Source: Thermoanaerobaculales bacterium | GTDB lineage: Bacteria; Acidobacteriota; Thermoanaerobaculia; Thermoanaerobaculales; Sulfomarinibacteraceae | Direction of reading: 5' to 3' | NCBI GenBank assembly: GCA_025456145.1 | Contig: JALOLD010000008.1 | Location: 1,265-65,264, forward strand | Length of the DNA: 64,000 bases | Shown: positions 8,606-44,162 of the stretch, piece after piece | Position numbering within the stretch: the first letter of the stretch is position 1 | Layout: each line of letters begins with the position of its first letter | Notes under the pieces: model-generated | The model's input: only the letters and a program-made list of their open reading frames with translations | The model's database searches: none | What the model was told of the DNA's origin: nothing | Made by a program: the position numbers and the translations under genes

Positions 8606-8682
8606 CCTCGCGAGCGATGATACAGCGGCGCCGCGCCCCGAGGTACGGCGGTCGATCGGTACACTCGCGCGGCTCGGGAGGG

Positions 8683-9402
8683 CTACTCGCCCTGGGCAGG
8701 GTCCTCGGCGACGAGGGTCGCGCGCACGATCGAGTCGAGCTCGGGGAAGTCGGCCTCGAGATAGGCGTTGCCCTCGGCGGCGATCCGCTGCTGGCTCGGG
8801 CCGCGGCCCCGCGGCGCGCCCTCGCCATAGCCCGAGTACAGGGCGTCGACCGCGTCCATCCCCGAGATCACCCTGCCGAAGGGCGCGAACGAGCCGTGGT
8901 CCTTGAGGTAGGAGTTGTCGGTGAAGTTGATGAAGAACTGGGTGGTCCGGGCATTGGGTGCGGCCGGCTGGGCGAAGGTCACCATGCCGCGCGCGTTGTC
9001 CTTGACGATCGGGTCGTCGGCGATCGTCGCCCGCGACCAGGCCCGCGACACCGCCGGGTCGGGGTTGAAGCCGCACTGGGCCATGAACCCGGGGATGACC
9101 CGGTAGAACACGGCGCCGTCGTAGAAGCCGATCTTCACCAGGTTGTAGAAGCGGTCGGCGCCGTTCGGCGCCCACTCGCGGTTGACCAGGATCACGATCT
9201 CGCCGGCGGTGGTCTCGAGCTTGACCCGGAAGGCGTCCGGGGCGCGCTCGGTGGCCAGCGAGGGGTCGAGGAGGGCGGGTTGGGAGGCCACGACGGCGGT
9301 GTCGCCGGCGTCGGTCTGTGCGGCGGCGGGTCCGCCCGAGGCGACGGCGAGCAGGAGGGTGGCGAGAAAGAGAAGACGTCGAGGCCTGAGGTCGTGGGTC
9401 AT
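8683..9402 (-). CDS. secreted cyclophilin-type peptidyl-prolyl cis-trans isomerase
   Basis: FYRVIPGFMAQCG, GMVTFAQ, TTQFFINF, FGRVISGMD. N-terminal signal peptide LLFLATLLLAVASGGPAAAQ. ATG at 9400-9402. Confidence 0.9.
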   Translation of the reverse strand: MTHDLRPRRLLFLATLLLAVASGGPAAAQTDAGDTAVVASQPALLDPSLATERAPDAFRVKLETTAGEIVILVNREWAPNGADRFYNLVKIGFYDGAVFYRVIPGFMAQCGFNPDPAVSRAWSRATIADDPIVKDNARGMVTFAQPAAPNARTTQFFINFTDNSYLKDHGSFAPFGRVISGMDAVDALYSGYGEGAPRGRGPSQQRIAAEGNAYLEADFPELDSIVRATLVAEDPAQGE

Positions 9403-21490: not shown

Positions 21491-21503
21491 CTGAGACCCC
21501 CTT

Positions 21504-23596: not shown

Positions 23597-23597
23597 C

Positions 23598-24698
23598 TCA
23601 GCCCTCCGTTTCCCCCTCACCGAGCTTCTTCGATGCCATCAGCGCCCCGCCGACGGCGGCGCCGGTGGCGAGGCCGACGACCCCCGCCCAGCCGGGCGTG
23701 ATCGGCCCGCGCTGATCGGCCGCGTGGATCGGCGGCACGTAGTTCGCCGGTAGTGCGGCCTGGGCGAAGAGCGGCTTGGTGAAGCCGACGCCCTTGGTGG
23801 TGCAGCCGAAGCACGGCGCGCCGATGCCGATCGGCCACGCATCCGGAACCTCGTTGAAGTGGAGGGTGGAGCAGTTGGCGTAGGTTTCCGGTCCCTTGCA
23901 GCCGAGGGCGAACAGGCAGTAGCCGAGGTTGTGGCCCTCGTCCCCGAACTGGCGCGCGAAGCGGCCGGCGTCGAAGTGGGCGCGACGCGGGCAGTGCTCG
24001 TGGATCGTACGGCCGTAGGCGAACAGCGGACGGCCCTCGTCGTCGAGCGCCGGCAGCGTTCCCATCGTCGCGAACTGGAGCACCACGCCGAGGAAGTTGT
24101 AGGGGTTCGAGGGGCAGCCCGGAAGGTTGACGATCGTCTTGTCGGGGAGGATCTCGTGGGCGCCAACCGCCCCGGTCGGGTTCGGGTCGGCGGACGGAAT
24201 GCCGCCCCACGAGGCGCACGAGCCGATCGCGATGATCGCAGCGGCGTTGCCGCCGACCTCCTTGAGGATGTCGATCGCGGTACGGCCGCCGATCTGGCAG
24301 TAGACCCCGTCGTCCTTGGTCGGGATCGCGCCCTCGACGACGCAGACGTAGCCGCCGCGCTCGACCGCGGCGTGCAGCGCGTCCTCGATCTGGTGGCCGG
24401 CCGCCGCGAACAGGGTCTCGTGGTAGTCCAGCGAGACCATGTCGAGGATCAGGGTCGCGATGCTCGGATGCGATGTCCGGAGCAGCGACTCGGTGCAGCC
24501 GGTGCACTCCTGGAAATGAAGCCACACCACCGAAGGCTTCAGGCCCGCCTCCGCCGCTTGCGCCCACTTGACCCCGGTCGCTGCCGGGAGTCCGAGGGCC
24601 GCGGCGGCCATCATGCAGACCTTGACGAAGTCCCGTCGATCCACGCCCTCTTCGGGCAGATCAACGGGCAGGTCGAACAACTCTTCCCTCCTACCCAT
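23598..24698 (-). CDS. hybO: [NiFe] hydrogenase small subunit, Tat signal and C-terminal TM anchor
   Basis: Tat motif DRRDFVKVC. WLHFQECTGCTES, GSCASWGG, CPSNP, HCPRRAHF, CLFALGCKGP, GAPCFGC. ATG 24698 is preceded by AAGGAGG (5-nt spacer). Confidence 0.9.
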   Translation of the reverse strand: MGRREELFDLPVDLPEEGVDRRDFVKVCMMAAAALGLPAATGVKWAQAAEAGLKPSVVWLHFQECTGCTESLLRTSHPSIATLILDMVSLDYHETLFAAAGHQIEDALHAAVERGGYVCVVEGAIPTKDDGVYCQIGGRTAIDILKEVGGNAAAIIAIGSCASWGGIPSADPNPTGAVGAHEILPDKTIVNLPGCPSNPYNFLGVVLQFATMGTLPALDDEGRPLFAYGRTIHEHCPRRAHFDAGRFARQFGDEGHNLGYCLFALGCKGPETYANCSTLHFNEVPDAWPIGIGAPCFGCTTKGVGFTKPLFAQAALPANYVPPIHAADQRGPITPGWAGVVGLATGAAVGGALMASKKLGEGETEG

Positions 24699-24756
24699 CT
24701 TCGCCTCCTTTAATCGAACGGCCATGAAGAAGAACTGACCCCAACAAGTCCGACCT

Positions 24757-24786
24757 AGGATAGGGACATCCGGCGAGAAATGTCAA
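24757..24786 (-). promoter_or_regulatory. candidate sigma70-type promoter for the hydrogenase operon
   Basis: Minus strand reads TTGACA (24786-24781), an 18-nt spacer, then TATCCT (24762-24757). Lies in the most AT-rich stretch of the window, about 55 nt upstream of the hybO ATG. Confidence 0.45.
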
Positions 24787-24876
24787 TAAATATGCCTGAA
24801 GTCCTAATGAATCTCAGAATCGGCCAAGGTTGTGAATGCGATTCAATCTTATTTGCTTTCATCCCGCCGGCGCTCC

Positions 24877-24914
24877 TGTGAATCAGTTCACATTGCCGCG
24901 TTCTTTGGTACAAT
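24877..24914 (+). promoter_or_regulatory. candidate hppA promoter with overlapping CRP/FNR-type palindrome
   Basis: TGTGAATCAGTTCACA (24877-24892) is a perfect TGTGA-N6-TCACA. Its right half supplies a -35 TTCACA, followed by a 16-nt spacer and -10 TACAAT (24909-24914). Confidence 0.5.
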
Positions 24915-25017
24915 CCCCGGGTCGGGGAGGGGGCGAGCGGCCCGATTCCGGGTGGCACGTCCGGGCCCCATTCAACGCGGTGCCGGAACGACTCTGGGGG
25001 AGAAGGAGGAGGACATC

Positions 25018-27231
25018 GTGGAACCTATGCACTTCATCTATCTGACACCGGCGGTGGCCGTCATCGCCCTGATCTTCGCCTACATGCGGGCGGCGTGGAT
25101 CAACCGCCAGGACGCGGGGACCGACCGCATGAAGCTGATCGGGGGCTGGATCGCCCAGGGAGCGATGGCCTTCCTCGGTCGCGAGTATCGGGTCCTCGCG
25201 ATCTTCGTCGTGGCGGCCGCGATCCTGCTCGGGGTCTCGAACCACTTCGTCGCGGAGGACACCAACGCATTCATCGCCCTGTCCTTCGTCCTCGGCGCGT
25301 TCTGTTCGGCGCTCGCCGGTTACTTCGGGATGAAGACGGCGACCGCGGCGAACACCCGCACCGCCTCGGCCGCCCGCCTCGGCCTCAACGACGCCCTTCA
25401 GGTGGCCTTCAAGGGTGGATCGGTGATGGGGTTGTCGGTGGTCGGGCTGGCGCTGGTCGGCCTCAGCCTGCTGTTCATCGGCTACACGCGGATGTACCCG
25501 GACTCTCTGACCCAGACCGGCGCGATGAACCTCGTGCTGAACATCCTCTCGGGCTTCTCGCTCGGCGCGTCCTCGATCGCGCTGTTCGCGCGCGTCGGCG
25601 GCGGAATCTACACCAAGGCCGCCGACGTCGGCGCCGACCTGGTCGGTAAGGTCGAGGCCGGGATCCCCGAGGACCATCCGCTCAACCCGGCGACGATCGC
25701 GGACAACGTCGGCGATAACGTCGGCGACGTGGCAGGTATGGGCGCGGACCTCTTCGAGTCCTACATCGGGGCCGTCGTCTCGGCGATGATCCTGGGCGTG
25801 GCGTGGCACGGCGGGCTCGAGGCGCTCGTGCCCGGCTCCGGCATGGACGCCGTGTACCTGCCCCTGGTGATCGCGGTCGTCGGGCTCGTCGCCTCGTTCC
25901 TCGGCTTTTTCATGGTGCGGACCAAGGAAGGCGGCAACCCGCAGGCCGGTCTCAACCGCGGGACATTCGGCGCCGGCATCCTGATGGTGGTCGGTGTCGT
26001 TTTTGCGGTCAAGTGGGCCATCCCGGCCGGTGAGGTGACCGTCGTCAACATGCTGGGCGGCGCCGAGACGGTGTACCAGTGGTGGGGCATCCTGATCGCC
26101 GTGGTCGCCGGGCTCGTGGCCGGCATCGGCGTCGGCGTGATCACCGAGTTCTACACCGCCACCTTCAAGTCGCCGGTGGGGACCATCGTCGAGGCGTCGA
26201 AGACCGGGCCGGCGACGACGGTCATCCAGGGCATCGCGGTCGGGATGAACTCGACCACCCTGCCGATCCTCGTGATCAGCGCTGCGATCCTCATCGCATA
26301 CGAGTTCGCCGGGCTGTACGGCATCGCGCTCTCGGCGGTCGGCATGCTGAGCACGCTCGCGATCCAGCTGGCGACCGACGCCTACGGACCGATCGCCGAC
26401 AACGCCGGCGGTGTCGCCGAGATGTCCCGGCTCGGCCGCGACATCCGCGCCCGGACCGATAAGCTTGACGCGGTCGGCAACACCACCGCGGCGATCGGCA
26501 AGGGCTTCGCGATCGGCTCGGCGGCCCTGACCGCTCTGGCGCTGACCGCGGCCTACCTGACCAAGATGCAGGGCAAGGTGGACATGGACGCGGCCAACCC
26601 GTACGTTCTCGTCGGGCTCCTCCTCGGCTGCATGCTGCCCTTCCGCTTCTCGGCGATGGCGATGGTTGCGGTCGGCAAAGCGGCGCAGGACATGATCCAG
26701 GAGGTCCGCCGTCAATTCCGGGACATCCCGGAGCTGCGGCCGGCCCTCGAGGCCGCGCAGCGGGCGGAGCACGAGGAGCGCGAGCCGAGCGAGCAGGAAG
26801 CGGCCATCATCCGGGCCGCCGACGGCAAGGCCGAGTACACCCAGTGCATCGACATCGCCACCGCGGCGGCGATCAAGAAGATGATCGTGCCCGGCCTGAT
26901 GGCGGTGCTCGCGCCGGTCCTGATCGGTCTGTACTCGGTCGACATGCTGGGTGGGCTTCTTGTCGGCGTCACCATCTCCGGCGTCTGCATGGCGATCTTC
27001 CAGGCCAATGCCGGCGGCGCCTGGGACAACTCGAAGAAACAGGTCAAGGAGCAGGGCCACAAGGTCTGGGGCGACGCCTATGACCAGATGCACAAGGCCA
27101 CGGTCACCGGCGACACGGTCGGCGACCCCTTCAAGGACACCTCGGGCCCGTCCCTCAACATTCTCATCAAGCTCATCAGCGTGGTCGCGATGATCATCGC
27201 GCCCATCCTGTACGCCATTCACTTCGGCTAG
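25018..27231 (+). CDS. hppA: membrane-bound ion-translocating pyrophosphatase (K+-dependent subfamily signature)
   Basis: [72 protein letters not shown] 25018 is preceded by GGAGGAGG. An alternative ATG lies at 25027. Confidence 0.92.
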
Positions 27232-28674: not shown

Positions 28675-29547
28675 CTATTGACGCCGTCGCCGTCCGGTCA
28701 GATCGTGGACGGCGCCATCCTCGTCGAGGTAGTAGGGGACTTCGGGGTCAAATGGCGTGTCGTGGATCCGGCCGTCGAGCCTCCGGTACTTGGCGGCCAG
28801 ATCGTTGCGGACCGCCGTCGCGCGGACGAACCCTCCACCGGGTCTGGAGATCGCCGAGTCGACCCGGAGCTCGGCCTCTTCTAGGGCCGTCTGGAGCGCG
28901 CGCATGTTCGGTGCGAAGCAGTTGGTGAAGTCGCCGTTGAGGCTGGCCCCCGGATAGGCCTGCCAGAGCGGGATGTCGATGAGCGCTGGATTGAGCGCCT
29001 CGAGGGTCGTCACCGCACCGTCCGGGAGGACGACGTGCTCGTCGATGAGAAACGTCGCCACGTACAGCTCGGCGCCGGGTTTCATGACCGAGCGGATCGA
29101 ATCGAGGGCGGCGAGCGGTTTTCGGAGGTGGTAGAGAACGCCGAGGAAGAGCACTCGGTCGAATCGGCCGTGCGTTTCCGGATCGAGGTTGTAGACGATG
29201 TCGACCAGATAGGCGGCATCGCTGCCCAAGATCTCGGCGGCAGTGGCAAACCCCGTTGCCGTCGCCTCGACGAAGTCCATCGCGGTGACCTCGGCGCCGC
29301 GTCGTTCGAGCTCGAACGTGAAGTACCCGTCCGAGCAGCCGATGTCGAGGGCTCGCACACCGTGAAGTCGTGCCGGCAACCCGAGCTCGTCGAGGAGCGG
29401 CATCTTCTGCCGATTGGAGTCGTCACCCGGGGTGATGACTCCCGGAGCGAGCTCGATCTCGTGCCACCAGCGGCCGCGGGCGGCGATCCGCCGCCGGATC
29501 TCCTCGGGGTCGGTGATTCGCGGGGGGTACGGCATGGCTTCGAACAC
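28675..29547 (-). CDS. class I SAM-dependent methyltransferase (DUF1698/Methyltransf_9-like N-terminal WxHxIEL motif)
   Basis: WWHEIELAPGVITPG, then the SAM motif I VRALDIGCSDGYFTFEL, and an acidic residue after beta-2 (VTAMDF). Confidence 0.8.
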   Translation of the reverse strand: MFEAMPYPPRITDPEEIRRRIAARGRWWHEIELAPGVITPGDDSNRQKMPLLDELGLPARLHGVRALDIGCSDGYFTFELERRGAEVTAMDFVEATATGFATAAEILGSDAAYLVDIVYNLDPETHGRFDRVLFLGVLYHLRKPLAALDSIRSVMKPGAELYVATFLIDEHVVLPDGAVTTLEALNPALIDIPLWQAYPGASLNGDFTNCFAPNMRALQTALEEAELRVDSAISRPGGGFVRATAVRNDLAAKYRRLDGRIHDTPFDPEVPYYLDEDGAVHDLTGRRRRQ

Positions 29548-30364: not shown

Positions 30365-30393
30365 CAAAAAAGCCCCCCGGTTTCCCGGGGGGT
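30365..30393 (-). terminator. Rho-independent terminator of the apr-qmo-sat operon
   Basis: Minus strand: CCCCCCGG-GAAA-CCGGGGGG followed by CTTTTTTG, about 37 nt after the sat stop. Confidence 0.75.
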
Positions 30394-30429: not shown

Positions 30430-31695
30430 TCACTTCTTCACGTTGCCGGTGGCGGCGCCGTGGAGCTTGACCTCGACCTTCTCCTCGAGGTTGTCGTAGT
30501 ACTCCTTGAGGACCGCGATCACCTCGGGCTTCGAGAACTCGGCCGGGACCGGCTTGCCCTCGCTCATGAGCTTGCGCAGCAGGGTGCCGGAGAGGAGGAG
30601 TCGGGAGCCGCCCTGGTACTTGCCGTTGTCGTCGATCACGGCCTTGGACTCGTGCGGGCAGGTCTTCATCGAGGCCATCGTGCCGCAGTCGTAGCAGTAG
30701 AAGGTCCAGTCCATGCACAGAGGCTTGAGCTGGAGCGCGTCGGACGGGATCTCGAGGAAGATCTTCTGGGCGTCGAACGGCCCGTAGTAGTCACCGACGC
30801 CGGCATGGTCGCGGCCGACGATGAGGTGCGAGCAGCCGTAGTTCTGGCGGAAGACGGCGTGGAGCAGAGCCTCGCGCGGCCCGGCATAGCGCATGTCGAG
30901 GGGGTAGCCGGCCATCGCCACGCGTTCCTTGCGGAAGTACTTGTCGACTAACGCGTTGATCGCCTTGACCCGGACGTCGGCCGGGATGTCACCGGGCTTG
31001 AGCTTGCCGACGAGCTGGTGGATGTAGACTCCGTCACAGACCTCGATGGCGACCCACGCCAGGTAAGCGTGCGAGCCGTGCATCGGGTTGCGGAGCTGGA
31101 GGGCGGCGACAGTCGACCAACCCCGCTCCTCGAACATCTTGCGCGATTCGGCCGGGCGCTGGTAGAGACCCTCGAACTGCTTGGGGAAGTACGACTCGGA
31201 CAGGACCTTCACCGGGCCGGCGAGGTTGACGTCCTTCTGCTCCATGACCATCTTGACGCCGGGATGCTCGACGTCGGTCGTCTTGTAGACCTTCTGACAC
31301 TCGTGCGCCTTGTCGATGGTGTACTTCTCGGTCACCGTCATGGTCGCCATGAACTCGTCGTGCTCGGGGTCGTAAAGCGCGACTTCCTCACCGATCTTGA
31401 TCGAGTCGGCGAGCGCCTTGTCGGCGGAGAGGGTGATCGGGATGGGCCAGAACAACCCGTTCTTCGAGGGCATCTTCATCTCGTCGACGACGCCCTTCCA
31501 GTCGGCTTTGCCCATGAAGCCTTCGAGCGGGGTGAAGCCGCCGATGCCGAGCATGATGAGGTCGCCGGTCTCGCGGCTGGTCAGCGGCACCTTCTTCAGC
31601 TTCTTCGCCTTGTCGAGCTCCTTGGCGCGCGCCGGGCCTTCGAGGAGCAGTGGTTTCAGGGTCGGACTTCCATGCGGGGGAACGAGCTGACTCAT
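30430..31695 (-). CDS. sat: sulfate adenylyltransferase (ATP sulfurylase), dissimilatory-type length
   Basis: [35 protein letters not shown]. 421 aa, no APS-kinase domain. Confidence 0.92.
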
Positions 31696-31764: not shown

Positions 31765-32949
31765 TCAGGTGCTGGTCATCCGCTGGTGAACCATGGCCAG
31801 CGAGCGGTAGAAGATGTGAGCGAACTTGGAGTAGGGCAGGGTGAGGAACAGACTGAGCACCACTCCCAGGTGAATCACGTACACCGCGAACCCGACGGAC
31901 GGGTCGGCGACGAGGTAGCGGGAGAACTCGGTGAGCACACCGGTGGCGATCACCGACAGGACCAACCACAGGAAGAAGCGGTCGAAGGCCGTGGTCTGAC
32001 CGACGAGCTTGTCCCCCTTCTTGAGGCGGTTCGCGAAGAGCATGATGCCGCCCACCACGAGGAGGACCGCCGAGATGTTCGCCAGCCACTTGTTCCAGTG
32101 GGTGATGGGTACCGGGTAGCCGATGTCCTCGAAGAACGGCAGGGCGAAGAACCACGAGAACGGCGGGGTGTCCGCGTACAGGAACACGACCGCGAAGCCC
32201 GAGGCGACGGCCGCGCCGACGAAGCCCCACATCACCATGAAGTGCCCCCAGCGGCGGCTCGGTACGCCGCGCTCGCAGCTCGCGAACTTCCGGTGCAGCG
32301 CGATGTCGGTGACGACGCCGATGAGCGAGCCGACAAAGCTCCCTCGTCGCGTTTGGCGGTCGCCCATCATCTTCCAGAACCTGCTTCCGGAGACCAAGAG
32401 CACCAGGCAGACGAAGCCGACGGCGGCGAAGTTGACGGCGTAGATGAGCGAGTGCGGGACCAGAGCGTCGTAGAAGTACTGACCCATGGTCGGCCCGGGT
32501 TGCAGGCCGTGGTGGGTCTCGACCTCGCCGAAGCCGGTGGTGATCCCGATCAACGCCGCCCAGAAGAGAATCGGTCCGAGGACGAGGAGCGGCCAGGTTT
32601 TGCGGACGTTGCCGACGAGCGAGCCGAGGGCTCCCGGGAAGGCGAGCTTCTCGACGACCATCGCCCGCAGCGAGGCCATGATGTCGCCCGGGGCGACATC
32701 GCGCGGGCAGCGGACCGAGCAGTCGTTGCACTGATGACAGAGCCAGACCGCCGGGTCGCCCATGAGCTGGTCGAACAGACCCCACTGGGCGAGCAGGATC
32801 TGACGACGCGGGAACGGAGCGTCGGCCGGGGCGAGCTCGCAGACGCTCGAGCAGGTCGCGCACTGGTAGCACTTGGCCGCGTTCTCGCCGCCGCGCTCGA
32901 AGAACTCGGCCCGGAGGTCGGTCGACTCGACGATGGGGATCGATGCCAT
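31765..32949 (-). CDS. qmoC: QmoC (HdrC-like 2x[4Fe-4S] domain fused to HdrE-like heme-b membrane domain)
   Basis: CYQCATCSSVC and CHQCNDCSVRCP, followed by about 6 TM helices. Sits directly after qmoB. Confidence 0.88.
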   Translation of the reverse strand: MASIPIVESTDLRAEFFERGGENAAKCYQCATCSSVCELAPADAPFPRRQILLAQWGLFDQLMGDPAVWLCHQCNDCSVRCPRDVAPGDIMASLRAMVVEKLAFPGALGSLVGNVRKTWPLLVLGPILFWAALIGITTGFGEVETHHGLQPGPTMGQYFYDALVPHSLIYAVNFAAVGFVCLVLLVSGSRFWKMMGDRQTRRGSFVGSLIGVVTDIALHRKFASCERGVPSRRWGHFMVMWGFVGAAVASGFAVVFLYADTPPFSWFFALPFFEDIGYPVPITHWNKWLANISAVLLVVGGIMLFANRLKKGDKLVGQTTAFDRFFLWLVLSVIATGVLTEFSRYLVADPSVGFAVYVIHLGVVLSLFLTLPYSKFAHIFYRSLAMVHQRMTST

Positions 32950-32964: not shown

Positions 32965-35226
32965 CTAGAAGCCCTTGAGCGGGTTGGGCCCCATCGCCTC
33001 GAGCTCGGCGGAGAACTCGTCGAGCACCCGGGGGACCCTGTCGAACTCGTCGTGCGACAGCTCGACCACCTTGATCCGCTCGGGCTCGAGGGCGAGCCGC
33101 TGCAGCGTCTCACCGACGTTTCCGAGGCGGGTGTTGGCGAGCTCGGAGCCGCGCACGTAGTGGCACTGGTAGTCGTCGCCGTACTTGCAGCCGACCAGGA
33201 TGACCCCGTCGACCCCGGCCGACAGCGCCTCGGCGATCCAGACGATGTTGGTCGAGCCGAGGCAGCGGATCGGGATGATCCGGGTCCACGGGTTCCAGGT
33301 CGCGCCGTTGGCCGCCGCGGCCTCGAGGGCGGGCACCGCGTCGTTCTCGCACATCAGCGCGAGGATGCGGGGCTTCTCCTCGTAGTCCTCGGGGATCGAC
33401 ATCGACTTGATCATCTCGGCAACCATGTGGACCGAGTAGTCCTGGAAGCTGATGATCCGCTCCGGGCAGGCGCCCATGCAGATGCCGCAGCGCCGACAGC
33501 GCAGCGGGTTGAACTCCGGCGTGCCCTTCTTGTCCTCGTTGAGCGTCCCGAACGGGCACTCCTCGGTGCAGCGCTTGCACTGGGTGCAGCGCTGGAGGAA
33601 GAAGTCGGGGTAGGCGGTGTCGCCAGCGCGCGGGTGGACCGCCTCGCCGCGCTTCGCCATCTCGATGCACTGGACGGCCTTCATCGCGGCGCCGAGGCCG
33701 TCCTCGGCGGCCTGGGCCGAGTCCATCGGCGCGTGCACCGTGCCGGCGGCGTAGATGCCGGTGCGCCGGGTCTCGTAGGGGAAGCAGATGAAGTGCGAGT
33801 CGGGGAAGCCGTACTTCAGGGTCGGCAGGTCCGGACCCTGGCGGTAGCCGAGGTGGAGGATCTCGGTGCCGTCGTGGTGCTTGAGCTCGTCGGCCCGCTT
33901 GGCCGACGTCGCGCGGACCTGCGAGCTCTCCGAGTGCTCGGCCTGGTGGCGCGAGTCGATGAGCTCGCGGATCAGCTCGCCGTCGGCGGACTGGGGAACC
34001 ATGCCGACCGCCAGCACGACCAGGTCGGCCTGGATCTGGACCCGGTCGCCGAGCAGGCTGTTGGAGAGGTGGATCGAGAGCTTGCCGTTGGCCTCGATCT
34101 TGTCGACGTCGCCGCGGGTCATCATCATCTCGGCGGTCTTCTGGACCCCGACGAAGAAGTGCTCCATGTGACCCGGCGCGCGGATGTCGCGGTAGATCAC
34201 CGCGCTCTCGATCGACGGCTCGAGCTTCTTGACCTCGGCGACCTGGCGCAGGGTGTTGACGCAGCACTCGGACGAGCAGTAGCGGAGGTGGTTGTCGTCG
34301 CGCGATCCGGCGCACTGGATGAAGGCGATCCGGTGCGGCTTCTTGCCGTCCGAGGGGCGGACGATGGCGCCGGCGGAGAGCATCGCCTCGAAGTCCTGCG
34401 AGGTCACGATGTCGGCGGAGGTGCCATAGCCGAGGTGGCCCAGGTTCTTCGCGTCGTAGGGCTTGGCGCCGGTCGCCTGGACGATCGCACCGATCGTCAT
34501 CTCGGCCGCCTCGGGCCCGCTCAGCGTGAGCTTGAACTGGCCGGGCTGGCCGGTGATCTTGGCGATCGTGGTGTCGGTGTAGACCCGGATCCGGTCGTCG
34601 GCCTTCACCTCGGCGATGAGGCCGGGCACCGGGTTCGGGATCGGCGCGTCGTAGGGCGGCTCCTCGGGCGGAATCGACACCTGGTGGGCGAGCTGACCGC
34701 CGAGCTCCGAGGCCTCCTCGACGAGGAGGACCGGCTTGCCGAGCCGGGCCGCGGTCAGGGCGGCCTCGAGACCGGCCCGTCCCGAGCCGACGACCAGCAC
34801 GGTGTCGGCGATCTCCTCGTGCAGGGGCACGATCTGCTTCATCCCGTTGAGCCGGGCCAGACCCATCCGGACGAGGTCCTGGGCGAGCATGGTCGTGTCC
34901 TCGGCGGTCTGGCCCTCGCCGTCGGCTGGGTGCGACCAGGTGCAGTGCTCGCGGATGGCGGTGCGGAAGACCGCGGGCACCTCCGACGACAGCGGCGCGA
35001 ACTCCCGGGTCTTGGCGCGATCGGAGCAGGCGGCGAGGAGGATGCCGTTGAGGCCGTGCTCGCTCACCGCGCCACGGATGGCGGCGAGACCCTCGGGCGC
35101 GCACAGACAGCCATGGGTGAGGGTCGCGGCGCACCCCTTCTCGGTGGCCGCTCCGATCACCTCGTCGACGGCGAGAGCGTCGCCGATGCCGCAACCGGTG
35201 CACAGAAAGACTCCAAGCTTGTCCAT
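32965..35226 (-). CDS. qmoB: QmoB (HdrA-like flavoprotein with ferredoxin and MvhD-like C-terminal domains)
   Basis: FAD motif VLVVGSGRAGLEAAL. CTQCKRCTEECP and CRRCGICMGACP. C-terminal MvhD-like CENDA...RCLG. ATG 35226 shares 1 nt with the qmoA stop (TGATG). Confidence 0.9.
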   Translation of the reverse strand: MDKLGVFLCTGCGIGDALAVDEVIGAATEKGCAATLTHGCLCAPEGLAAIRGAVSEHGLNGILLAACSDRAKTREFAPLSSEVPAVFRTAIREHCTWSHPADGEGQTAEDTTMLAQDLVRMGLARLNGMKQIVPLHEEIADTVLVVGSGRAGLEAALTAARLGKPVLLVEEASELGGQLAHQVSIPPEEPPYDAPIPNPVPGLIAEVKADDRIRVYTDTTIAKITGQPGQFKLTLSGPEAAEMTIGAIVQATGAKPYDAKNLGHLGYGTSADIVTSQDFEAMLSAGAIVRPSDGKKPHRIAFIQCAGSRDDNHLRYCSSECCVNTLRQVAEVKKLEPSIESAVIYRDIRAPGHMEHFFVGVQKTAEMMMTRGDVDKIEANGKLSIHLSNSLLGDRVQIQADLVVLAVGMVPQSADGELIRELIDSRHQAEHSESSQVRATSAKRADELKHHDGTEILHLGYRQGPDLPTLKYGFPDSHFICFPYETRRTGIYAAGTVHAPMDSAQAAEDGLGAAMKAVQCIEMAKRGEAVHPRAGDTAYPDFFLQRCTQCKRCTEECPFGTLNEDKKGTPEFNPLRCRRCGICMGACPERIISFQDYSVHMVAEMIKSMSIPEDYEEKPRILALMCENDAVPALEAAAANGATWNPWTRIIPIRCLGSTNIVWIAEALSAGVDGVILVGCKYGDDYQCHYVRGSELANTRLGNVGETLQRLALEPERIKVVELSHDEFDRVPRVLDEFSAELEAMGPNPLKGF

Positions 35227-36482
35227 CACGACCTCCCACCGGCAGCGATGACCGCGCGGGCGGCGGCCCCTGTCGCGTCACGAACCGATGCGGCGACGTC
35301 CTCGGGACGACGGGCGACCCCGGCGACGGTGACCGCCGAGGAGAGGTCGTCGAGCACGAAGCCCTCGTCGTCCTTGCGGGTGAAGATCGCCAGGTCGTCG
35401 TCGACGGCGTTGGGCACCATCCCGGTGGCGAGCACCACGAGATCGGCCTCGGCCTCGATGAGCCGGACGTTCTCGACGTCCTCGACGTGGAGCTTGACCG
35501 ACCCGCCGTTCCTCTCGATCCGGCCGACCTTCCCCTTGACCAGCTTGACGCCGTCGAGGGCCGCGACCTTGAGGAGGAAGTCCTCGTTGCGGCCCGGGGT
35601 GCGGCGGTCGATGTAGTACATCGTCACCTCGGCCTCGGGCAGCTGCTCCTTGACATAGGTCGCCTGCTTGAGCGAGGCGAGGCAGCAGATTCCCGAGCAG
35701 TAGTTGAGGTGGTTGACGTCGCGCGACCCGGCGCACTGGACGAAGGCGACCCGCTTGGGAGGCTGGCCCGACGAGGGGCAGAGGATCTTGCCGCCGGTCG
35801 GACCGTTCGCCGAGGCCAGGCGCTCCATGTGGACGTTGGCGATCACGTCGTCGATCCTGCCGCCGCCGAGCTCCTCGAGGTTCTCGATGGGGTAGGGACG
35901 CCAGCCGGTCGCGACGACGACCGCGCCGACCTCGATGGTCACGCTGGTCGCGACCGCCGACGGGTCGACGGCGTTGACCGGGCAGGCCTCGGCGATGCGC
36001 TTCGCCTCGGCGTCGCCCACCGCCTCGCGGTCGAAGACATAGCGCTTCGGCCAGGCGTTGAGGTGGGGGAGGCGGATCGCCTTGACGGTGCAGAGGCCGA
36101 GGTTGTGCGGGTCGGGGACCGTGGTCTCGCAGGCCGCCTCACAGTCGCCGCAGGCGGTGCACGCGGCGGTGACGTAGGCCGGCGCGGTGGTGATCGTCAC
36201 CTTCCAGCCGGCGCCGATCTTCTCCGCCGCTGTGATCTTCGACGAGGTCAGGACGCGGATCCGCGGGTTGCGCTCGAGCCGGCGGGTGTTGATCTCCATG
36301 CCGCAGGACGGCGGGCACAGCTTGGGGAAGTAGTTGTTGATGCGCAGCACCCGGCCGCCGATGGAGGGAGACTCCTCCACCAGGACGACCTCGGAGCCCA
36401 TCTCGGCGGCTTCGAGAGCTGCGGTGACGCCCGCGATGCCGGCGCCGATCACGAGCAGGGGGGAGGTCTTGTTCTCGCTCAT
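35226..36482 (-). CDS. qmoA: QmoA (HdrA-like flavoprotein)
   Basis: LLVIGAGIAGVTAALEAAEMG, CTACGDCEAAC, FVQCAGSRD. 418 aa. ATG overlaps the stop of the upstream Cys-cluster gene (ATGA). Confidence 0.9.
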   Translation of the reverse strand: MSENKTSPLLVIGAGIAGVTAALEAAEMGSEVVLVEESPSIGGRVLRINNYFPKLCPPSCGMEINTRRLERNPRIRVLTSSKITAAEKIGAGWKVTITTAPAYVTAACTACGDCEAACETTVPDPHNLGLCTVKAIRLPHLNAWPKRYVFDREAVGDAEAKRIAEACPVNAVDPSAVATSVTIEVGAVVVATGWRPYPIENLEELGGGRIDDVIANVHMERLASANGPTGGKILCPSSGQPPKRVAFVQCAGSRDVNHLNYCSGICCLASLKQATYVKEQLPEAEVTMYYIDRRTPGRNEDFLLKVAALDGVKLVKGKVGRIERNGGSVKLHVEDVENVRLIEAEADLVVLATGMVPNAVDDDLAIFTRKDDEGFVLDDLSSAVTVAGVARRPEDVAASVRDATGAAARAVIAAGGRS

Positions 36483-37285
36483 TGAACACTCCGTTCGGCC
36501 GCGCCCTCGCGCACCTTCATCGTCGGCTCCTTGAACAGGGCGAAACGGAGCCAGCGGAAGGCGAACCGGAGGAGCGCCACGTCGTTGGTCTTGATGTCGG
36601 CGACCAGGTCGTCGTCGAGCTCGAATCGCTCGAGAAAGGTCGACTCGAACACGAACTCGCGGAAGCTGTCGAGGTCGTAGCAGGCGGTGTAGAGCATGTG
36701 CATCCGCTTGGGGTCGAGCTGGCGCCCGCCGATGAACCAGGGGTGGCTGACCAGCTCGCGGAAGCCGGCCTCGATCTCGTCCCTCTCGACCAGGCGCTGA
36801 TCGGCGCGCCACCTCTCGGCGGTCCAGGCGACCGCGTCGGGCTGAAGCCGCCCCTGGCAGTGGTCGTCCTCGAACACGAAGAAGATCGGCTCGGGCTCGA
36901 CCCCGGCGCGGGCCGGCGGGATCGCCATGCCGAGCGGGTACATCCGGCAGGCCCACGGTCGATCCTGGTAGACGGTGCAGCCCTCCTCGCCGACGAACGG
37001 GCATTTCTTCCCCTCGTCGTCGCGCATCTTCAGAAGCACCACCGGAAGCTGGAGGTCCTTGGTGATCGGGTTGCCGGTGTAGGTGTCGAGGAAGAGCCGG
37101 GTGTGCAGCCCGGTGCGGCGCGCGAGCTGGAGCACGTCGAGAGGCGTCAGGATGATGTTGACGTCGGCGCAGCACTGGTTGAAGCAGGGGACCCCGGGGT
37201 GGCAGGTGAACTCGAAGCTCTCGTCGGCGGCGAGCTGGCGCTTGCCGGCGAGGTAGGCCGGGAGGTGGATCTCGGGATCGCTCAT
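36479..37285 (-). CDS. YkgJ/UPF0153-type cysteine-cluster (zinc- or iron-chelating) protein
   Basis: FTCHPGVPCFNQCCAD and KCPFVGEEGCTVYQDRPWACRMYP (the family hallmark), plus DDHCQG. 268 aa. ATGA overlaps at both ends. Confidence 0.75.
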   Translation of the reverse strand: MSDPEIHLPAYLAGKRQLAADESFEFTCHPGVPCFNQCCADVNIILTPLDVLQLARRTGLHTRLFLDTYTGNPITKDLQLPVVLLKMRDDEGKKCPFVGEEGCTVYQDRPWACRMYPLGMAIPPARAGVEPEPIFFVFEDDHCQGRLQPDAVAWTAERWRADQRLVERDEIEAGFRELVSHPWFIGGRQLDPKRMHMLYTACYDLDSFREFVFESTFLERFELDDDLVADIKTNDVALLRFAFRWLRFALFKEPTMKVREGAAERSVQ

Positions 37286-37590
37286 CGGAGAGCTCCCGGG
37301 TCGCTGCCGCAGCCGGTCACGACCGCCTCGATGATCCGGTCCTTGAGCGCGTCGACCGACCACACGGGGAGCGGCGTGGGCTTGCCGTTGACCGGGTCGA
37401 CCCGGTAGCGGTAGGACGCCTTGACCGCGAAGTTGGTCTCCATGTGCTCCCAGCCACGGAGGAAGTACGGGCACTCGTCGTTGAAGCAGGCGAGCTGGAA
37501 CTCCGACTGCCACCCGGTGTTGTCGGGCAGCTCGAAGGGTTGGAGATCGTGGTTGCAGTGGGGACAGACGAAACGGTTTTCTTGAGTCAT
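37282..37590 (-). CDS. small zinc-ribbon-like protein, unknown function
   Basis: 102 aa. Cys knuckles CPHC and CFNDEC. No family recognised. Coding is supported by the coupled ATGA overlap with the next gene and by its position in the operon. Confidence 0.6.
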   Translation of the reverse strand: MTQENRFVCPHCNHDLQPFELPDNTGWQSEFQLACFNDECPYFLRGWEHMETNFAVKASYRYRVDPVNGKPTPLPVWSVDALKDRIIEAVVTGCGSDPGALR

Positions 37591-37807: not shown

Positions 37808-39685
37808 TCACTTCATCGGGAGGATGTCTCTCTTGAGCATCGTCCACTCTTCGGTCTCCGGGTGCATGGTGCAGTTGACGAAGCACAGCCACTTGTCGTT
37901 GTCGAGCTTGGGGAAGTCGGCGCGGAAGTAGTAGCCGGGCCAACGGGTCTCTTCGCGGTACAGGATGGTCCGGACGTGGGCCTCGGCCTGGTAGGTCCGG
38001 TGGTAGTTCTCCCAGCACCGCATGAGCTCGTGAAGGTCCTTGGCGCCGAGGTACTTCGAGTCCTCCTTGAGCATCCCGAGGAGCTCGAGACCGCGCTCGC
38101 AGAGGGCCTTCGAGGTGGTGAACTGGGCGCCCACGCCGCCCGCGTACTCGTCCATGATCTTCTGCAGCCGGAACATGTACATTTTGGGAAGGATGTAATG
38201 CGGGTTGACGTCGATCTGCGAGGTGAAGTCCTTGTGCTCGGCAAACGTGTCGAGCGGCTTCAGGGTCGCGGCCTTGAGCGCCTCGATGGTGGCGTTGTCG
38301 ACCGTCGGCATCGCCGGCTTCTCCTTGACGAGGTAGCGGATCGCGGCCTTGGCGGCGATCCGGCCCTCGGCGTGGGAGCCCGAGGAGAACTTGTGCGACG
38401 AGGCGCCGGTGGCGTCGCCGGCGGCGAACAGCCCCTTGACGGTCGTCATGCACTCGTATCCCCAGAAGTACGCCGGCGGCGCGAGGTCCTCGGGACCGCT
38501 CACCCAGGCGCCCGAGGCGCCAGAGTGCGAGCCGATGAAGTAGGGCTCGGCGGCCGCGATCTCGGACGACTTCTCTTCGGGCTGGACGTCGGAGGCCGCC
38601 CACAGGATGGCCTGCGAGATCGTCATGTCGAGGAAGTCTTCCCAGGCCTCGCTCTCGAGCTCCTTCATCTTCGCCTTGTAGGCCTTGGGGTCGTCCTTGT
38701 AGGCGTCGGCGATCTTCTGGATCGCTTCCTCGGTCCGCATGTAGATCGGGCCCTTGCCCTGCATCACGTCGAGCATGCCGAGGTAGTTGCGGAGGTTGGC
38801 CGGGATCGGCTTGACCAGACCGTAGGGCTTCCAGTTCTGGAGCTCGTCCTTGCGCTCGACCATGTACTCGCCGCCGAAGGCGTTGGTCGCGCGGGACTTG
38901 AAGAGCAGGAACCAGGCGCCGACCGGGCCGTAGGCATCCTTGAACCGGACCGGGATGAAGCGCACTTCCTGGCAGGTCATCTCGGCGCCGGCCTTCAGGG
39001 TGAAGTAGGCCGACGAGCCGGAGTTCCACGGCGGGTACCAGGCGCGGCCGAGGCCCTCGCCCGAGGAGCGCGGCTTGAACACGTGGACGGCGCCGCCCAT
39101 GGCGCAGAAGATCGCCCGGGCCTTGAAGATGTAGAACTTCTCTTCGCGGACCGAGAAGCCGTAGGCGCCGATGCACTGGTCGCCCTTCATGATCGGGCCG
39201 ACGATGAAGACGCGCTCGTAGATGTTCTCGGTGCCCAGGTGGTTCTTGGCGGCCTCGGCCACCACGACCTTGTAGGACTCACCGTTGATCATGAGCTGCC
39301 AGCGGCCCTCGTGGACGTAGCCGCCGTCCTCGGTCTTCCAGATCGGCAGGCCCCACTTCTCGAAGAGGTGGACCGACGAGTCGACGTGACGGGCGATGTT
39401 GGCGACGAGGTCCTCGCGGGCGACGCCCATGAGGTCCTGCTTGACGTAGTTGACGTAGTCCGCGACGGTGTTCTGCCCGTCCTTCAGACCGACGTACTGG
39501 TTGATCGCAGACAGACCCATGGCGACCGCGCCGGAGCGGTCGACCGCGGCCTTGTCGACGAGGGTGACTTTCAAGCCGTGCTTCTTGGCCCAGTAGGCCG
39601 CTTCGACGGCCGCGCCGCAGGAGGCCATGCCGCCGCCGAGGATGAGAAGATCGGTCTCGACCTGGACAGTTTCGAATTTTGCCAT
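37808..39685 (-). CDS. aprA: adenylylsulfate (APS) reductase alpha subunit
   Basis: FAD motif DLLILGGGMASCGAAVEAAYW, plus the fumarate-reductase-like fold and length (625 aa). ATG 39685 is preceded by GGGAGGGGA. Directly follows aprB. Confidence 0.93.
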   Translation of the reverse strand: MAKFETVQVETDLLILGGGMASCGAAVEAAYWAKKHGLKVTLVDKAAVDRSGAVAMGLSAINQYVGLKDGQNTVADYVNYVKQDLMGVAREDLVANIARHVDSSVHLFEKWGLPIWKTEDGGYVHEGRWQLMINGESYKVVVAEAAKNHLGTENIYERVFIVGPIMKGDQCIGAYGFSVREEKFYIFKARAIFCAMGGAVHVFKPRSSGEGLGRAWYPPWNSGSSAYFTLKAGAEMTCQEVRFIPVRFKDAYGPVGAWFLLFKSRATNAFGGEYMVERKDELQNWKPYGLVKPIPANLRNYLGMLDVMQGKGPIYMRTEEAIQKIADAYKDDPKAYKAKMKELESEAWEDFLDMTISQAILWAASDVQPEEKSSEIAAAEPYFIGSHSGASGAWVSGPEDLAPPAYFWGYECMTTVKGLFAAGDATGASSHKFSSGSHAEGRIAAKAAIRYLVKEKPAMPTVDNATIEALKAATLKPLDTFAEHKDFTSQIDVNPHYILPKMYMFRLQKIMDEYAGGVGAQFTTSKALCERGLELLGMLKEDSKYLGAKDLHELMRCWENYHRTYQAEAHVRTILYREETRWPGYYFRADFPKLDNDKWLCFVNCTMHPETEEWTMLKRDILPMK

Positions 39686-39695
39686 GTTCCCCTCC

Positions 39696-40127
39696 CTACT
39701 TCGTCCACACAGCGCAGCCCAGGGAGTCGGGCTCGGTGTAGAGAACCGGGCCGTCGAGGCTCGGATCGGTGTTGAAGCCACCGAGCGGGTCCGCCTGGCC
39801 CTCAGCCGTCGTCCGGATGGGGAACTTGAACCGCTTCACCTGACCACTGCGGAACTTGACCGTCCACATGATCGAGTCGGTGGAGCGCAGCGGCACCACG
39901 GACGCGCCCATCGGCACGAAGTCCGCATAACCGCGGACGTCGACCGCCTGCGTCGGGCAGATCTTGACGCAGTTGTAGCACTCCCAGCACATCTCCGGCT
40001 CACGGTTGTAGGCCTTCATCTTCTCCTTGTCGAGAACCATGAGGTCATTGGGACAGATGTACTGGCAGGCGGTCTTGTCGAGCGCCTTACACCCGTCGCA
40101 CTTCTCCACGTTCACAAAACTCGGCAT
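39696..40127 (-). CDS. aprB: adenylylsulfate (APS) reductase beta subunit
   Basis: CDGCKALDKTACQYICP and CWECYNCVKICP clusters, with the typical long C-terminal tail. ATG 40127 has AGGAGG 8 nt upstream. Confidence 0.92.
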   Translation of the reverse strand: MPSFVNVEKCDGCKALDKTACQYICPNDLMVLDKEKMKAYNREPEMCWECYNCVKICPTQAVDVRGYADFVPMGASVVPLRSTDSIMWTVKFRSGQVKRFKFPIRTTAEGQADPLGGFNTDPSLDGPVLYTEPDSLGCAVWTK

Positions 40128-40750: not shown

Positions 40751-41599
<849 letters not shown>

Positions 41600-41670
41600 G
41601 CGTTCGCTGTCAGTCGCCGGCACGACGCGCCGGATCGGGGCCTCAGGGACCGGTCGCTGCCGGTCTCCCG

Positions 41671-43788
41671 TCAGGCGCCCTCGAGCATCCGCCGAAGCGC
41701 CTCCGGATCGGTGGTCGGGACGCCGCACGCGAAGTCACGGCAGGCAAAGGCCGTGGCCCGGCCGTCCGCTGACCGGTGCCCGGCGGTGAACGGCGCGAGC
41801 TCGCGCACCCGGTCGCCCTCCGATCCCGGCGGGACGAGCAGGACCGCTCCCTGCGGCCGGTAGGCGGAGCGGATGACCTCGAGCATCGCGCGGGTGTCGT
41901 CGGCATCGGGATCCCCGACGACCACCACCTCGAGGGAGGGCGCGCAGGCGAGCTGGAAGGCGTCCGCCAGGTGGCCGTGGGCGGAGGCGCTCCGCGCGGT
42001 GTCGGCGGCGAAGGCGGCGAACAGGCGAGCCGCCCGATCCGACAGGTCGGCGCGGCCGCTGAGCCGTGCGAGGCGTACCAGGTTCATCGCCGCCACCGAG
42101 TTGCCCGAGGGGATCGCGCCGTCGTAGACCTCCTTCTGTCGGACCAGCAGGACCTCGCTGTCCGCGGCGGCCGAGAAGTAGCCGCCGTGCGCGGAGTCCC
42201 AGAAGAGCCGGTCGGTCTCGGCCTGGAGATCGAGGGCGAGCTCGAGGAAGGCGGGGTCGAGGGTCGAGTCGTACAGCTCGATTGCGCCCCAGGCGAGGAA
42301 GGCGTGGTCGTCGAGAAAGGCCGGCACGGCGAGCTCGCCGGCTCGCCAGCGGTGGTGGAGCCGGCCCCGGCGGTCGCGCATCGAGCCGAGCACGAAGGCG
42401 AGCGAGCGGCGCGCCGCCTCGACGTACGACGGCTCGTCGAAGACCCGGCCGGCCCGGGCCAGCGCGGCGATCATCAGGCCGTTCCAGTCGGCCAGCACCT
42501 TGTCGTCCTTGAGGGGGTGGACCCGGGTGACGCGGTATGAGAAGAGCCGCGAGCGGGTCTCGGCGAGACGGTCGTGACGGTGCTCGGGCGTCCCGCCGAG
42601 CCGGGCGGCGGCGGCATCGCCGAGCTCGGTGCGGTGCGGGATGTTGGCGCCGGTTCGTCGCCCGCTCGCCTCGTCGGCGAAGTTCCCCTCGGGGGTGAGG
42701 TTCCAGATCGCGCCGACGAGAGCGGCGTCCTCCGGTCCGACGACCCGGGCGACCTCGTCGGCGGTCCAGACGTAGAACCGTCCCTCCTCGCCCTCGCTGT
42801 CGGCGTCCTCGGCGGAGAAGAAGGCCCCGTCGGGCGAGGTCATGTCGCGCCGGACATAGGTGGCGACCTCGTCGACGATCCGCCGGTGAGCGGCCGAGCG
42901 GCCGCCGGCGAGATGGGCCTCGGTGGCGGCTAGCACGAGCATCGCCTGGTCGTAGAGCATCTTCTCGAAGTGTGGAACGAGCCACTCGGCGTCGGTCGAG
43001 TAACGGTGGAGGCCGAAGCCGATCTGGTCGAAGATCCCGCCCCGGTGCATCGCCTCGAGGGTACGCTCGGCCATCTCGAGGGCCCGCGGCTGGCCCGCCA
43101 GCCGGGCGTAGCGCGAGAGGAAGATCAGGTTGTGGCTCGATGGGAACTTGGGCGCGCCGCCAAAGCCGCCGTGCGTCCGGTCGAAGCGAGCCTCGAGCTC
43201 CCGGTAGGCCCGGTCGGGAAGCGTGGGGTCGGGATCGGCGGCGGCGCGAGGCTCCGCGATCTCGCCCAGCCGGGCCGTGATCTGCTCGGCCGAGGCGAGG
43301 ATCGGATCGCGTTCGTTCCGCCAGAGCTGGCCGACCCGCGGGATGAGATCGAGCATCCCGATTCGGCCGAAACGGCTCTCCCGGGGGAGGTAGGTGGCGG
43401 CGAAGAAGGGCTTCGTGTCGGGGGTCATGACGATCGTCAGGGGCCAGCCGCCGGAGCCGGTCAGCATCTGGCAGACGGTCATGTAGACCTGGTCGATGTC
43501 GGGCCGCTCCTCGCGGTCGACCTTGACGTTGACGAAGGTCTCGTTCATCAGCGCGGCCACGATCGGGTCCTCGAACGACTCGTGCTCCATGACGTGGCAC
43601 CAGTGGCAGGTCGCGTAGCCGATGGAGAGGAAGATCGGCCTGTCCTCTTCCCGGGCCTTCTCGAACGCCTCCTCGCCCCACGGGTACCAGTCGACCGGGT
43701 TGCCGGCGTGCTGGAGCAGGTAGGGGCTCTTTTCGCCGGCGAGGCGGTTCGCTCTCGGAGGGGATCCGGTATCGGGTGGGTGGCTCAT
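41671..43788 (-). CDS. thioredoxin-domain protein of the YyaL/DUF255 (SSP411-like) family
   Basis: [36 protein letters not shown], followed by an (alpha/alpha)6-like domain. Confidence 0.85.
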
Positions 43789-44162
43789 GGCGGCTCCAAG
43801 CTTCGGTCGGACGGGAGAGGTCTCGTACCCTGTCACAACTGGTTCCCTCGGGTGTCACATTCCGCGGGTCGGACCAACCAGCGGAGGGTGCGCCGCTCCG
43901 GTATGATCGTCGGGTCGGGTAGACCCTGCCGGCCGGTGCGCGGTCGCGGTCGCATCGTGGTGGTCGCGCCGGCCTCCGGCCTTCGGGCGCCTGCGCCGTT
44001 GGAGAGGACGATCGTTGAGGTGGTTTCGGTTGCCGCGGTCTTCGTCGTGCTCATGAGCATGCTCCGGCTCGGCCGGCCGGCCGTCCGTCCCGTCAACGAC
44101 GATGCCGAGCCGGGGCTCGTCCTCGAGATGGCCGCAACCGTGGGCTCCTGACGGAGCGGGCG

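Follow-up and report, generated by a model that had tools for sequence, protein, structure and literature searches.

Of the steps of dissimilatory sulfate reduction, the delivery of electrons to APS (adenosine 5'-phosphosulfate) reductase is understood least. The QmoABC complex is indispensable to the reduction of sulfate and binds the reductase AprAB mainly via QmoA, but the purified proteins bind each other without electron transfer, and reconstitution of the transfer from a menaquinol analogue to APS via Qmo and Apr failed (PMC3333476). Since 2012 a missing partner has therefore been postulated; a third partner and electron confurcation were proposed by the authors, who noted no co-localized partner gene (PMC3333476). 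In the canonical cluster (sat-)aprBA-qmoABC of Desulfovibrio, Archaeoglobus and green sulfur bacteria, the gap between aprA and qmoA is non-coding, as reported for green sulfur bacteria (PMC6338057) and sulfate-reducing bacteria (PMC3333476) and as seen in five Desulfobacterales-type contigs, where it consists only of a hairpin and non-coding DNA. The stretch of 64,000 nucleotides analyzed here (the window; contig JALOLD010000008.1 of a Thermoanaerobaculales bacterium) harbors the seven core genes in unchanged order, with a hairpin behind aprA and with Qmo proteins of equal sizes and domains. In the window, however, the gap is filled by two coupled genes on the minus strand, one for a soluble acidic zinc-ribbon protein of 102 amino acids (ZR, 37282-37590) and one for a soluble acidic cysteine-cluster protein of 268 amino acids (CxC, 36479-37285).

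A functional association of ZR and CxC with Apr-Qmo is well supported, and the reality of the genes, their synteny, translational coupling, co-induction and covariation speak for it. The reading preferred here, to which we give a probability of roughly 45%, is that both serve the APS-reductase/Qmo module as dedicated accessory proteins, CxC being an iron-sulfur (Fe-S) protein on QmoA and ZR an adaptor at AprA. A reading made from the letters of the window alone (the sequence-only reading) had regarded the pair as candidates for accessory or assembly subunits. Of this claim the association stands, on account of synteny, coupling, co-induction and CxC-QmoA covariation, and the role itself is tentative.

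Genes at this position have been listed before. For Thermonerobacter thiotrophicus (Kapabacteria), Thiel et al. (2019) gave the order sat-aprBA-hyp-hyp-qmoC with 'two conserved hypothetical genes' (PMC6338057), and ZR and CxC of the acidobacterial metagenome-assembled genome (MAG) CO124 are listed under the sulfate-reduction pathway as 'conserved hypothetical proteins' by Dyksma and Pester (2023, PMC10564751). The two gene families behind aprA are the same in Kapabacteria, CO124 and the window, but in Kapabacteria qmoC directly follows CxC and qmoAB are located elsewhere. According to the locus tags of Hausmann et al., two or three genes lie between aprA and qmoA (PMC6018796); ZR and CxC are probably among the grey syntenic genes in Figure 2 of that paper. 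In the literature searched, including the synteny study of Neukirchen et al. (2023) and a 2023 review on the diversity of sulfate-reducing microorganisms, neither gene was named or analyzed. Hence, the description of the pair as previously undescribed had to be narrowed, since the genes were listed as conserved hypotheticals in two earlier papers (PMC6338057, PMC10564751) but no role was assigned to them; that neither family has a described role in this pathway holds within the literature searched. The operon variant as such is already in the literature. New are its breadth, the coupling to qmoA, the covariation with QmoA, the distant paralogues (with QmoAB-HdrD and in Desulfobacterales) and the link to FliB and Apr methylation. 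DVU0851, an extra gene in the qmo operon of D. vulgaris, was considered as an equivalent of CxC or ZR and rejected because it reportedly has no homologues outside Desulfovibrio (PMC3125180).

To rebuild the operon, the list of open reading frames (ORFs) and the sequence of the window, which has a G+C content of about 70%, were read again. The order on the minus strand is aprB, aprA, hairpin, ZR, CxC, qmoA, qmoB, qmoC, sat, and matches the one first described. The stop codon of ZR and the start codon of CxC overlap by ATGA (37285-37282), the stop codon of CxC and the start codon of qmoA (35226-36482, minus strand) by a second ATGA (36482-36479), and the TGA of qmoA and the ATG of qmoB have one base in common at position 35226 (TGATG), each as the sequence-only reading had it. 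With each GTDB species represented by one genome, a scan revealed at least 585 stretches with a CxC relative. The best 80 loci, all from MAGs and with 59-84% identity, were analyzed, and the eight proteins of the window were mapped onto them and onto two further contigs. Most labels among the best 80 are Acidobacteriota; 15 are Myxococcota or 'delta', two NC10, two Planctomycetota, one each Acidithiobacillales, Pseudomonadota and Fibrobacteraceae, and a few read only 'bacterium'. In 82 of 82 loci, CxC lies downstream of aprA and upstream of qmoA as far as the contigs reach, and the full order aprB-aprA-ZR-CxC-qmoA-qmoB-qmoC-sat was found in 49 loci; as an exception, sat is placed between CxC and qmoA in L077. 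Homologues are thus overwhelmingly adjacent to apr/qmo genes, an enrichment that had been proposed as a check on the pair. In the Polyangia-labelled MAG locus L043, an insertion of 4.6 kb (4364-9001) separates ZR from CxC, ZR remaining with aprA and CxC with qmoA. The inserted unrelated genes include small hypotheticals and genes for a thioredoxin-like and an FGE-like protein.

The overlaps are retained across these related loci, at 65 of 84 ZR-CxC junctions, 68 of 83 CxC-qmoA junctions and 56 of 79 qmoA-qmoB junctions. Between aprA and ZR, no overlap was found at 73 junctions, and the spacer has a median length of 69 nucleotides. From these values, ZR-CxC-qmoA-qmoB emerges as a block with conserved translational coupling, in agreement with the coupling to qmoA that had been proposed for the window. 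The ratio of nonsynonymous to synonymous substitution rates (dN/dS) was determined for the window genes against six close loci. It amounts to 0.12-0.27 for CxC and 0.10-0.32 for ZR, compared to 0.20-0.25 for QmoA and 0.12-0.14 for AprA as references, and both CxC and ZR are under purifying selection. Hundreds of homologues, these dN/dS values and the uniform order in 82 loci place the arrangement of the two genes far beyond chance.

Directly behind aprA, the window contains a GC-rich hairpin (37793-37764, minus strand) with a stem of 13 bp, 12 of them G-C pairs, and the T-rich tail CTTTTCTC. An equivalent GC stem of 12-13 bp is present in all 68 aprA-ZR spacers examined (median minimum free energy -38 kcal/mol, z -4.6), and substitutions in the stem are compensatory, for example from CCCCGGGCGC/GCGCCCGGGG to CCCCAGGCGC/GCGCCTGGGG. 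Across phyla (spacers of L001-L088) the consensus reads GGCCCCrGGCGC-tetraloop-GCGCCyGGGGCC, often with a T-run behind it. The canonical Desulfobacterales-type loci possess an analogous hairpin with a T-run after aprA, CCTCCAGGTGTC-GMAA-GACACCTGGAGG-TTTTT. The element between aprA and ZR resembles a partial terminator or a stabilizer of the mRNA 3' end, and it probably sets a drop in mRNA of about 10-50-fold from aprBA to the downstream genes.

Transcription can be followed in the metatranscriptomes of CO124 (Supplementary Data 2 of Dyksma and Pester 2023, PMC10564751). Levels, given as reads per kilobase per million (RPKM), were 0 in the four oxic replicates for both genes and rose under anoxic, sulfate-reducing conditions to 6.6-9.0 for CxC (1368; adjusted p 6e-10) and 2.0-5.4 for ZR (1369; adjusted p 3e-3). 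The corresponding oxic and anoxic values are 0-4.8 and about 57 for aprA/aprB, 0 and about 1.1 for qmoA, and 0 and about 2.7 for qmoB and qmoC (PMC10564751). Both transcripts therefore lie between those of aprBA and qmoABC, and the step-down after aprA matches the conserved hairpin. Transcription of the two ORFs, a second check put forward for the window, was accordingly seen in a related acidobacterium, where both are induced together with apr and qmo (PMC10564751).

Covariation was analyzed with 53 loci in which all seven proteins are complete, by correlating pairwise distance matrices after the mean of the other proteins had been regressed out. CxC and QmoA gave the strongest pair in the operon (partial r 0.75, raw r 0.89; permutation p <= 0.0003, a value that is optimistic because the signal is strongest in distant pairs and a few clade-level events may dominate it), ahead of AprA-AprB, the known tight heterodimer (partial r 0.59, raw r 0.81). 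The QmoA signal is present in both halves of CxC (0.67 and 0.68). ZR and AprA revealed a partial r of 0.40 (raw r 0.71), CxC and AprA one of -0.12 (raw r 0.62). Adjacency alone does not yield such a value, since the adjacent pairs ZR-CxC (partial r 0.06, raw r 0.60), QmoA-QmoB (0.31, raw r 0.75) and QmoB-QmoC (0.11, raw r 0.56) are low. The insertion in L043, after which ZR stayed with aprA and CxC with qmoA, agrees with this pattern.

CxC of the window, which contains KCPFVGEEGCTVYQDRPWACRMYP, is 100% identical to an annotated protein of a Thermoanaerobaculales MAG (Acidobacteriota). Residues 33-118 match the Pfam model PF03692 (YkgJ) with 35.4 bits (cut-off 23), and this domain is present in all listed CxC homologues. 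In an alignment of 23 homologues with 67-91% identity, the mean column identity is 74% and nine cysteines are invariant: C28-X5-C34-X3-C38-C39 (CX5CX3CC), C95, C103, C113, C143 and C202. Eight of them, the counterparts of C28, C34, C38, C39, C95, C103, C113 and C143, are also invariant among distant relatives that are only 30-43% identical to one another. Neither CxC nor ZR has a transmembrane segment. An AlphaFold2 (AF2) model of CxC (predicted local distance difference test, pLDDT, 78) had no Foldseek neighbor in the PDB at E <= 0.001, and a profile search of the PDB sequences found no relative among solved structures. Apart from PF03692, no family was matched in Pfam and NCBIfam scans, and with CxC and 27 relatives NCBIfam yielded no matching family at E <= 10 other than one chance hit. 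CxC and ZR gave no match to any Hdr-type family in Pfam or NCBIfam, and no sign of a derivation from HdrA, HdrC or HdrE modules was thus found.

Two known kinds of proteins resemble CxC. HdrB/HdrD subunits with a CCG domain replace QmoC in QmoAB-HdrBC/HdrD systems. Like CxC, they are cysteine-rich and soluble, have an adjacent Cys-Cys pair and are encoded beside QmoAB-type flavoproteins, but their CCG domain (PF02754) has no match in CxC in the Pfam scan. Moreover, in one locus (L085) an HdrD-like protein with a CCG domain is encoded side by side with two CxC proteins, which argues that HdrD and CxC are not interchangeable. The other is FliB of Salmonella, whose motif CX4CX3CC binds a [4Fe-4S] cluster needed for the S-adenosylmethionine (SAM)-dependent methylation of flagellin lysines; its authors relate the cysteine-rich motif to PF03692 (PMC8598068). 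FliB has in common with CxC an N-terminal CXnCX3CC, eight conserved cysteines and no similarity to solved folds. By contrast, it comprises 401 amino acids, forms a large membrane-associated oligomer, acts on flagellin and is encoded in an entirely different genomic context. Besides FliB, no biochemically characterized protein with such a cysteine-rich motif was found in the literature searched. Due to the similarity of CX5CX3CC to the cluster-binding motif of FliB, Fe-S binding is proposed for CxC, and its eight invariant cysteines may hold one or two Fe-S clusters.

In ZR, C9, C12, C35 and C40 (CPHC...CFNDEC) are invariant in 23 of 23 aligned homologues, and the pattern CX2CX22CX4C has the spacing of Ogr/Delta proteins. 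The AF2 model of ZR (pLDDT 80), which like that of CxC is of fair confidence, had no Foldseek match at E <= 0.001 in the PDB or in BFVD, a collection of predicted viral structures, so that no Ogr/Delta-like fold was found. No solved relative was detected by a profile search of PDB sequences, and no NCBIfam model matched ZR at E <= 10.

To determine the distribution of CxC beyond these loci, 1.84 billion cluster representatives were searched exhaustively. At E <= 1e-3, 1556 clusters (50% identity) match CxC, and 138 do so at E <= 1e-30, the latter mostly over their full length with 240-290 amino acids and 31-48% identity. The genomic context was fetched for eleven distant relatives, ten of which were informative, and eight of these ten (31-48% identity) are linked to apr/qmo genes. 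The order is aprA-ZR-CxC at P0284, CxC-CxC-qmoA at P0290 (a low-GC organism), sat-aprBA-ZR-CxC-qmoABC at L087 and aprBA-ZR-CxC-qmoABC at L088 (both about 42% identity). The Kapabacteria locus L089 reads sat-aprBA-ZR-CxC-qmoC-dsrAB, with ZR and CxC being 40% and 43% identical to those of the window. At P0291 (L085 2104-8792, likewise L086), qmoA-qmoB-hdrD (Fer4 and CCG domains) is followed by a gene for a cysteine-rich protein of 86 amino acids and by two CxC genes (231 and 263 amino acids), apr being absent within 8 kb. P0430 is divergent from aprB of an otherwise canonical aprBA-qmoABC cluster, and P0412 lies 4.6 kb from aprB. The remaining two are P0353, which has an unrelated context, and P0399 (L090 2942-5014, L091), a radical-SAM fusion beside GmrSD_N and NT5C genes and no sulfur genes. 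Among long relatives screened, P0318 and P0326 were set aside as fusions, since they look like mis-called or frameshifted ORFs.

At 90% identity, the AprA encoded beside P0430 falls into a cluster in which the members with a name come from Desulfobacterales/Desulfobacteraceae MAGs. When metagenomes were scanned with the second CxC of this locus, 41 loci were obtained. In at least ten of them, on Desulfobacterales-type contigs, a gene pair for a YkgJ-like cysteine protein of 219 amino acids and CxC2, and on the divergent strand a pair for an SDR dehydrogenase and CxC1, are located immediately upstream of aprB-aprA-qmoA-qmoB. This divergent cluster was seen at L092 (7001-10032) and among L093-L129. 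In L110, L116 and L117, again Desulfobacterales-type contigs, ZR-like genes (35-39% identity) stand beside further CxC paralogues away from aprA, a hint that the two families remain associated outside the operon, too. The linkage to apr/qmo in such differing arrangements shows that the association of the long-form CxC outlasts several independent rearrangements. It extends to classical deltaproteobacterial sulfate reducers, and CxC proteins also accompany QmoAB-HdrD-type modules.

For CxC, we infer cofactor binding, docking and electron transfer: it would be a soluble Fe-S protein whose translation is in a fixed relation to that of QmoA, on which it would dock. There it might carry electrons from the QmoA flavin further towards AprB, or serve as the entry point of a second donor with a low potential. 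ZR would serve as a small zinc-ribbon adaptor on the AprA side. Going further, it is conceivable that in most uncultured sulfate/sulfite-cycling lineages the working complex is QmoABC with CxC (and ZR), that CxC is the 'third partner' at the QmoA-AprB junction and completes the path or lets in the second donor, by which APS reduction driven by menaquinol would become feasible through confurcation, and that Desulfobacterales use their paralogues upstream of aprB; this extended version must be regarded as doubtful.

Several observations weigh against accessory proteins of this kind. The covariation is strongest among distant pairs, and a shared clade history together with joint recombination of neighboring genes can inflate rate covariation. 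In Kapabacteria, the pair was kept with aprBA and qmoC while qmoAB are elsewhere, in partial disagreement with the covariation pattern. ZR is missing in two MAG loci, L080 (8750-9000) and L081 (1540-1790), where CxC directly follows aprA; thus, ZR is dispensable in some lineages in which CxC was retained. The operons of Desulfovibrio and Chlorobi lack the insert and purified Desulfovibrio QmoABC has three subunits (PMC3333476), so that an indispensable CxC would need another locus or a substitute there. Furthermore, conserved polar residues other than cysteine (D, Y, R and R) flank the motif in the alignment of distant relatives, with which a substrate-binding enzyme is also compatible. P0399, a protein of 690 amino acids, combines an N-terminal radical-SAM domain with a full-length CxC-type domain (35% identity). 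Finally, FliB, the source of the cofactor analogy, acts as an enzyme rather than carrying electrons.

The last points lead to the main rival, according to which CxC is a FliB-like [4Fe-4S] enzyme for the modification or maturation of Apr/Qmo, by lysine methylation or cofactor insertion, and ZR its adaptor or specificity factor. This is possible, though on balance unlikely. FliB is a [4Fe-4S]- and SAM-dependent protein-lysine methyltransferase with CX4CX3CC and eight conserved cysteines (PMC8598068), to be compared with CX5CX3CC and eight invariant cysteines in CxC. In D. vulgaris, AprA (...GAWFLLFK*) and AprB (...IMWTVK*FR) carry mono-, di- and trimethyl-lysine, and MetK and AhcY co-purify with AprA (PMC3125180). 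With this precedent and with methylated Apr lysines that are conserved, CxC could be a modifying or maturation enzyme. Besides the window, 53 of 53 related loci keep the lysine of AprA (...GAWFLLFK) and 52 of 53 that of AprB (...MWTVKFR), which is only a necessary condition for such a modification. The radical-SAM fusion of P0399 would also fit an enzyme, and so would the CxC paralogues of the Desulfobacterales-type loci, which stand with an SDR enzyme beside the operon and not within it. On the other hand, the context of the fusion is unrelated to sulfur, and a search of NCBIfam families (E <= 10, 27 relatives) revealed no likeness of CxC to FliB apart from the cysteine-rich motif. CxC is as conserved as QmoA and its transcript in CO124 exceeds those of qmoABC, which is unusual for a maturase. 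CxC covaries with QmoA and not with AprA/AprB, the proteins known to be methylated.

A regulatory role of the pair would make ZR an Ogr/Delta-type activator or a DsrD-like effector of AprBA, and CxC a redox or Fe-S sensor tuning the qmo part. DsrD, encoded in the dsrAB operon, was formerly suspected of DNA binding. It resembles ZR as a small, soluble protein which is conserved within a core sulfate-reduction operon and whose function was long unclear, but differs by its winged-helix structure, the lack of a zinc site and a demonstrated allosteric role. For a small operon-encoded protein acting as an allosteric activator it nevertheless sets a precedent (PMC8794893). The cysteine spacing of ZR is exactly that of Ogr/Delta proteins, and 21 of its 23 homologues match PF04606 at E <= 0.1 (best 4e-6), yet ZR of the window reached only 19.2 bits, below the cut-off of 26.3, and its model lacks a Foldseek counterpart in BFVD and the PDB. 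Both genes lie directly behind the conserved hairpin resembling a partial terminator, where control of read-through could act. However, regulators are seldom translationally coupled in the middle of a structural block or held at 60-80% identity across phyla, some lineages lose ZR yet keep CxC, and a covariation of CxC with QmoA is unexpected for a sensor. This reading matches the data poorly and is improbable. Equally poor is the match of a pair of mere passengers with a function unrelated to sulfur, spread only because the operon moves as a unit, which is very improbable: PF03692 is indeed a very large family of mixed functions, with 1556 clusters matching at E <= 1e-3, and two distant relatives (P0399, P0353) have unrelated contexts, but the association with apr/qmo persists to about 31% identity and outlives operon breaks in Kapabacteria, QmoAB-HdrD clusters and the divergent Desulfobacterales arrangement, and purifying selection, conserved coupling and co-induction favor a function in the pathway.

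With ZR and CxC, a large part of sulfate-reducer diversity possesses two co-localized, coupled and co-induced proteins, one of which covaries with QmoA, as clonable candidates for the partner postulated for QmoABC. Desulfobacterales includes cultured members. The paralogues beside aprB in the Desulfobacterales-type contigs would provide a route to genetics if cultured strains have them. Should CxC be a FliB-like modifier, it would account for the unexplained lysine methylation of AprA/AprB. Under either reading, the gene set 'sat, aprBA, qmoABC' used for scoring sulfate respiration is incomplete in these lineages.

The other genes of the operon, all on the minus strand, were assigned as follows. 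aprB (39696-40127) encodes the beta subunit of APS reductase (NCBIfam TIGR02060, 216 bits; PF12139), with the lysine of ...SIMWTVKFR... kept, and aprA (37808-39685) the alpha subunit (TIGR02061, 891 bits), with that of ...GAWFLLFK... kept. QmoA and QmoB matched HdrA-type models, QmoA being an HdrA-like flavoprotein and QmoB (32965-35226) an HdrA-like protein with 4Fe-4S and MvhD/FlpD domains. qmoC (31765-32949) encodes the membrane subunit (NF038018, 374 bits, cut-off 300) and sat (30430-31695) ATP sulfurylase (NF003166, 496 bits). For aprA, aprB, qmoC and sat, the NCBIfam equivalog scores are above the curated cut-offs. A sigma-70 promoter scan of the operon region found none; a hairpin scan detected a terminator-like hairpin (30373-30392) which closes the operon after sat. 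At the operon end of L001-L082, two forms of sat were found at the same position, 75-96% or only 40-46% identical to Sat of the window, which suggests that sat was replaced by a non-orthologous or deeply divergent copy in otherwise collinear operons.

Upstream of the operon (40856-43836), genes for adenylate kinase and a DUF255 thioredoxin-like protein are located, and this pair was found again 5' of aprB in L001 and L002. Downstream (19790-27231), the window contains an H+-pyrophosphatase gene and a set for a membrane-anchored [NiFe] hydrogenase (large and small subunit, Fer4_11, NrfD). An energy metabolism based on sulfate respiration is compatible with the genes around the operon. Just past the sat terminator and on the same minus strand (28675-29547), there is a gene for a class I SAM-dependent methyltransferase (Methyltransf_23/11); at this position L001 has a gene for an SLT/LysM protein instead, so that the neighborhood there is not conserved.

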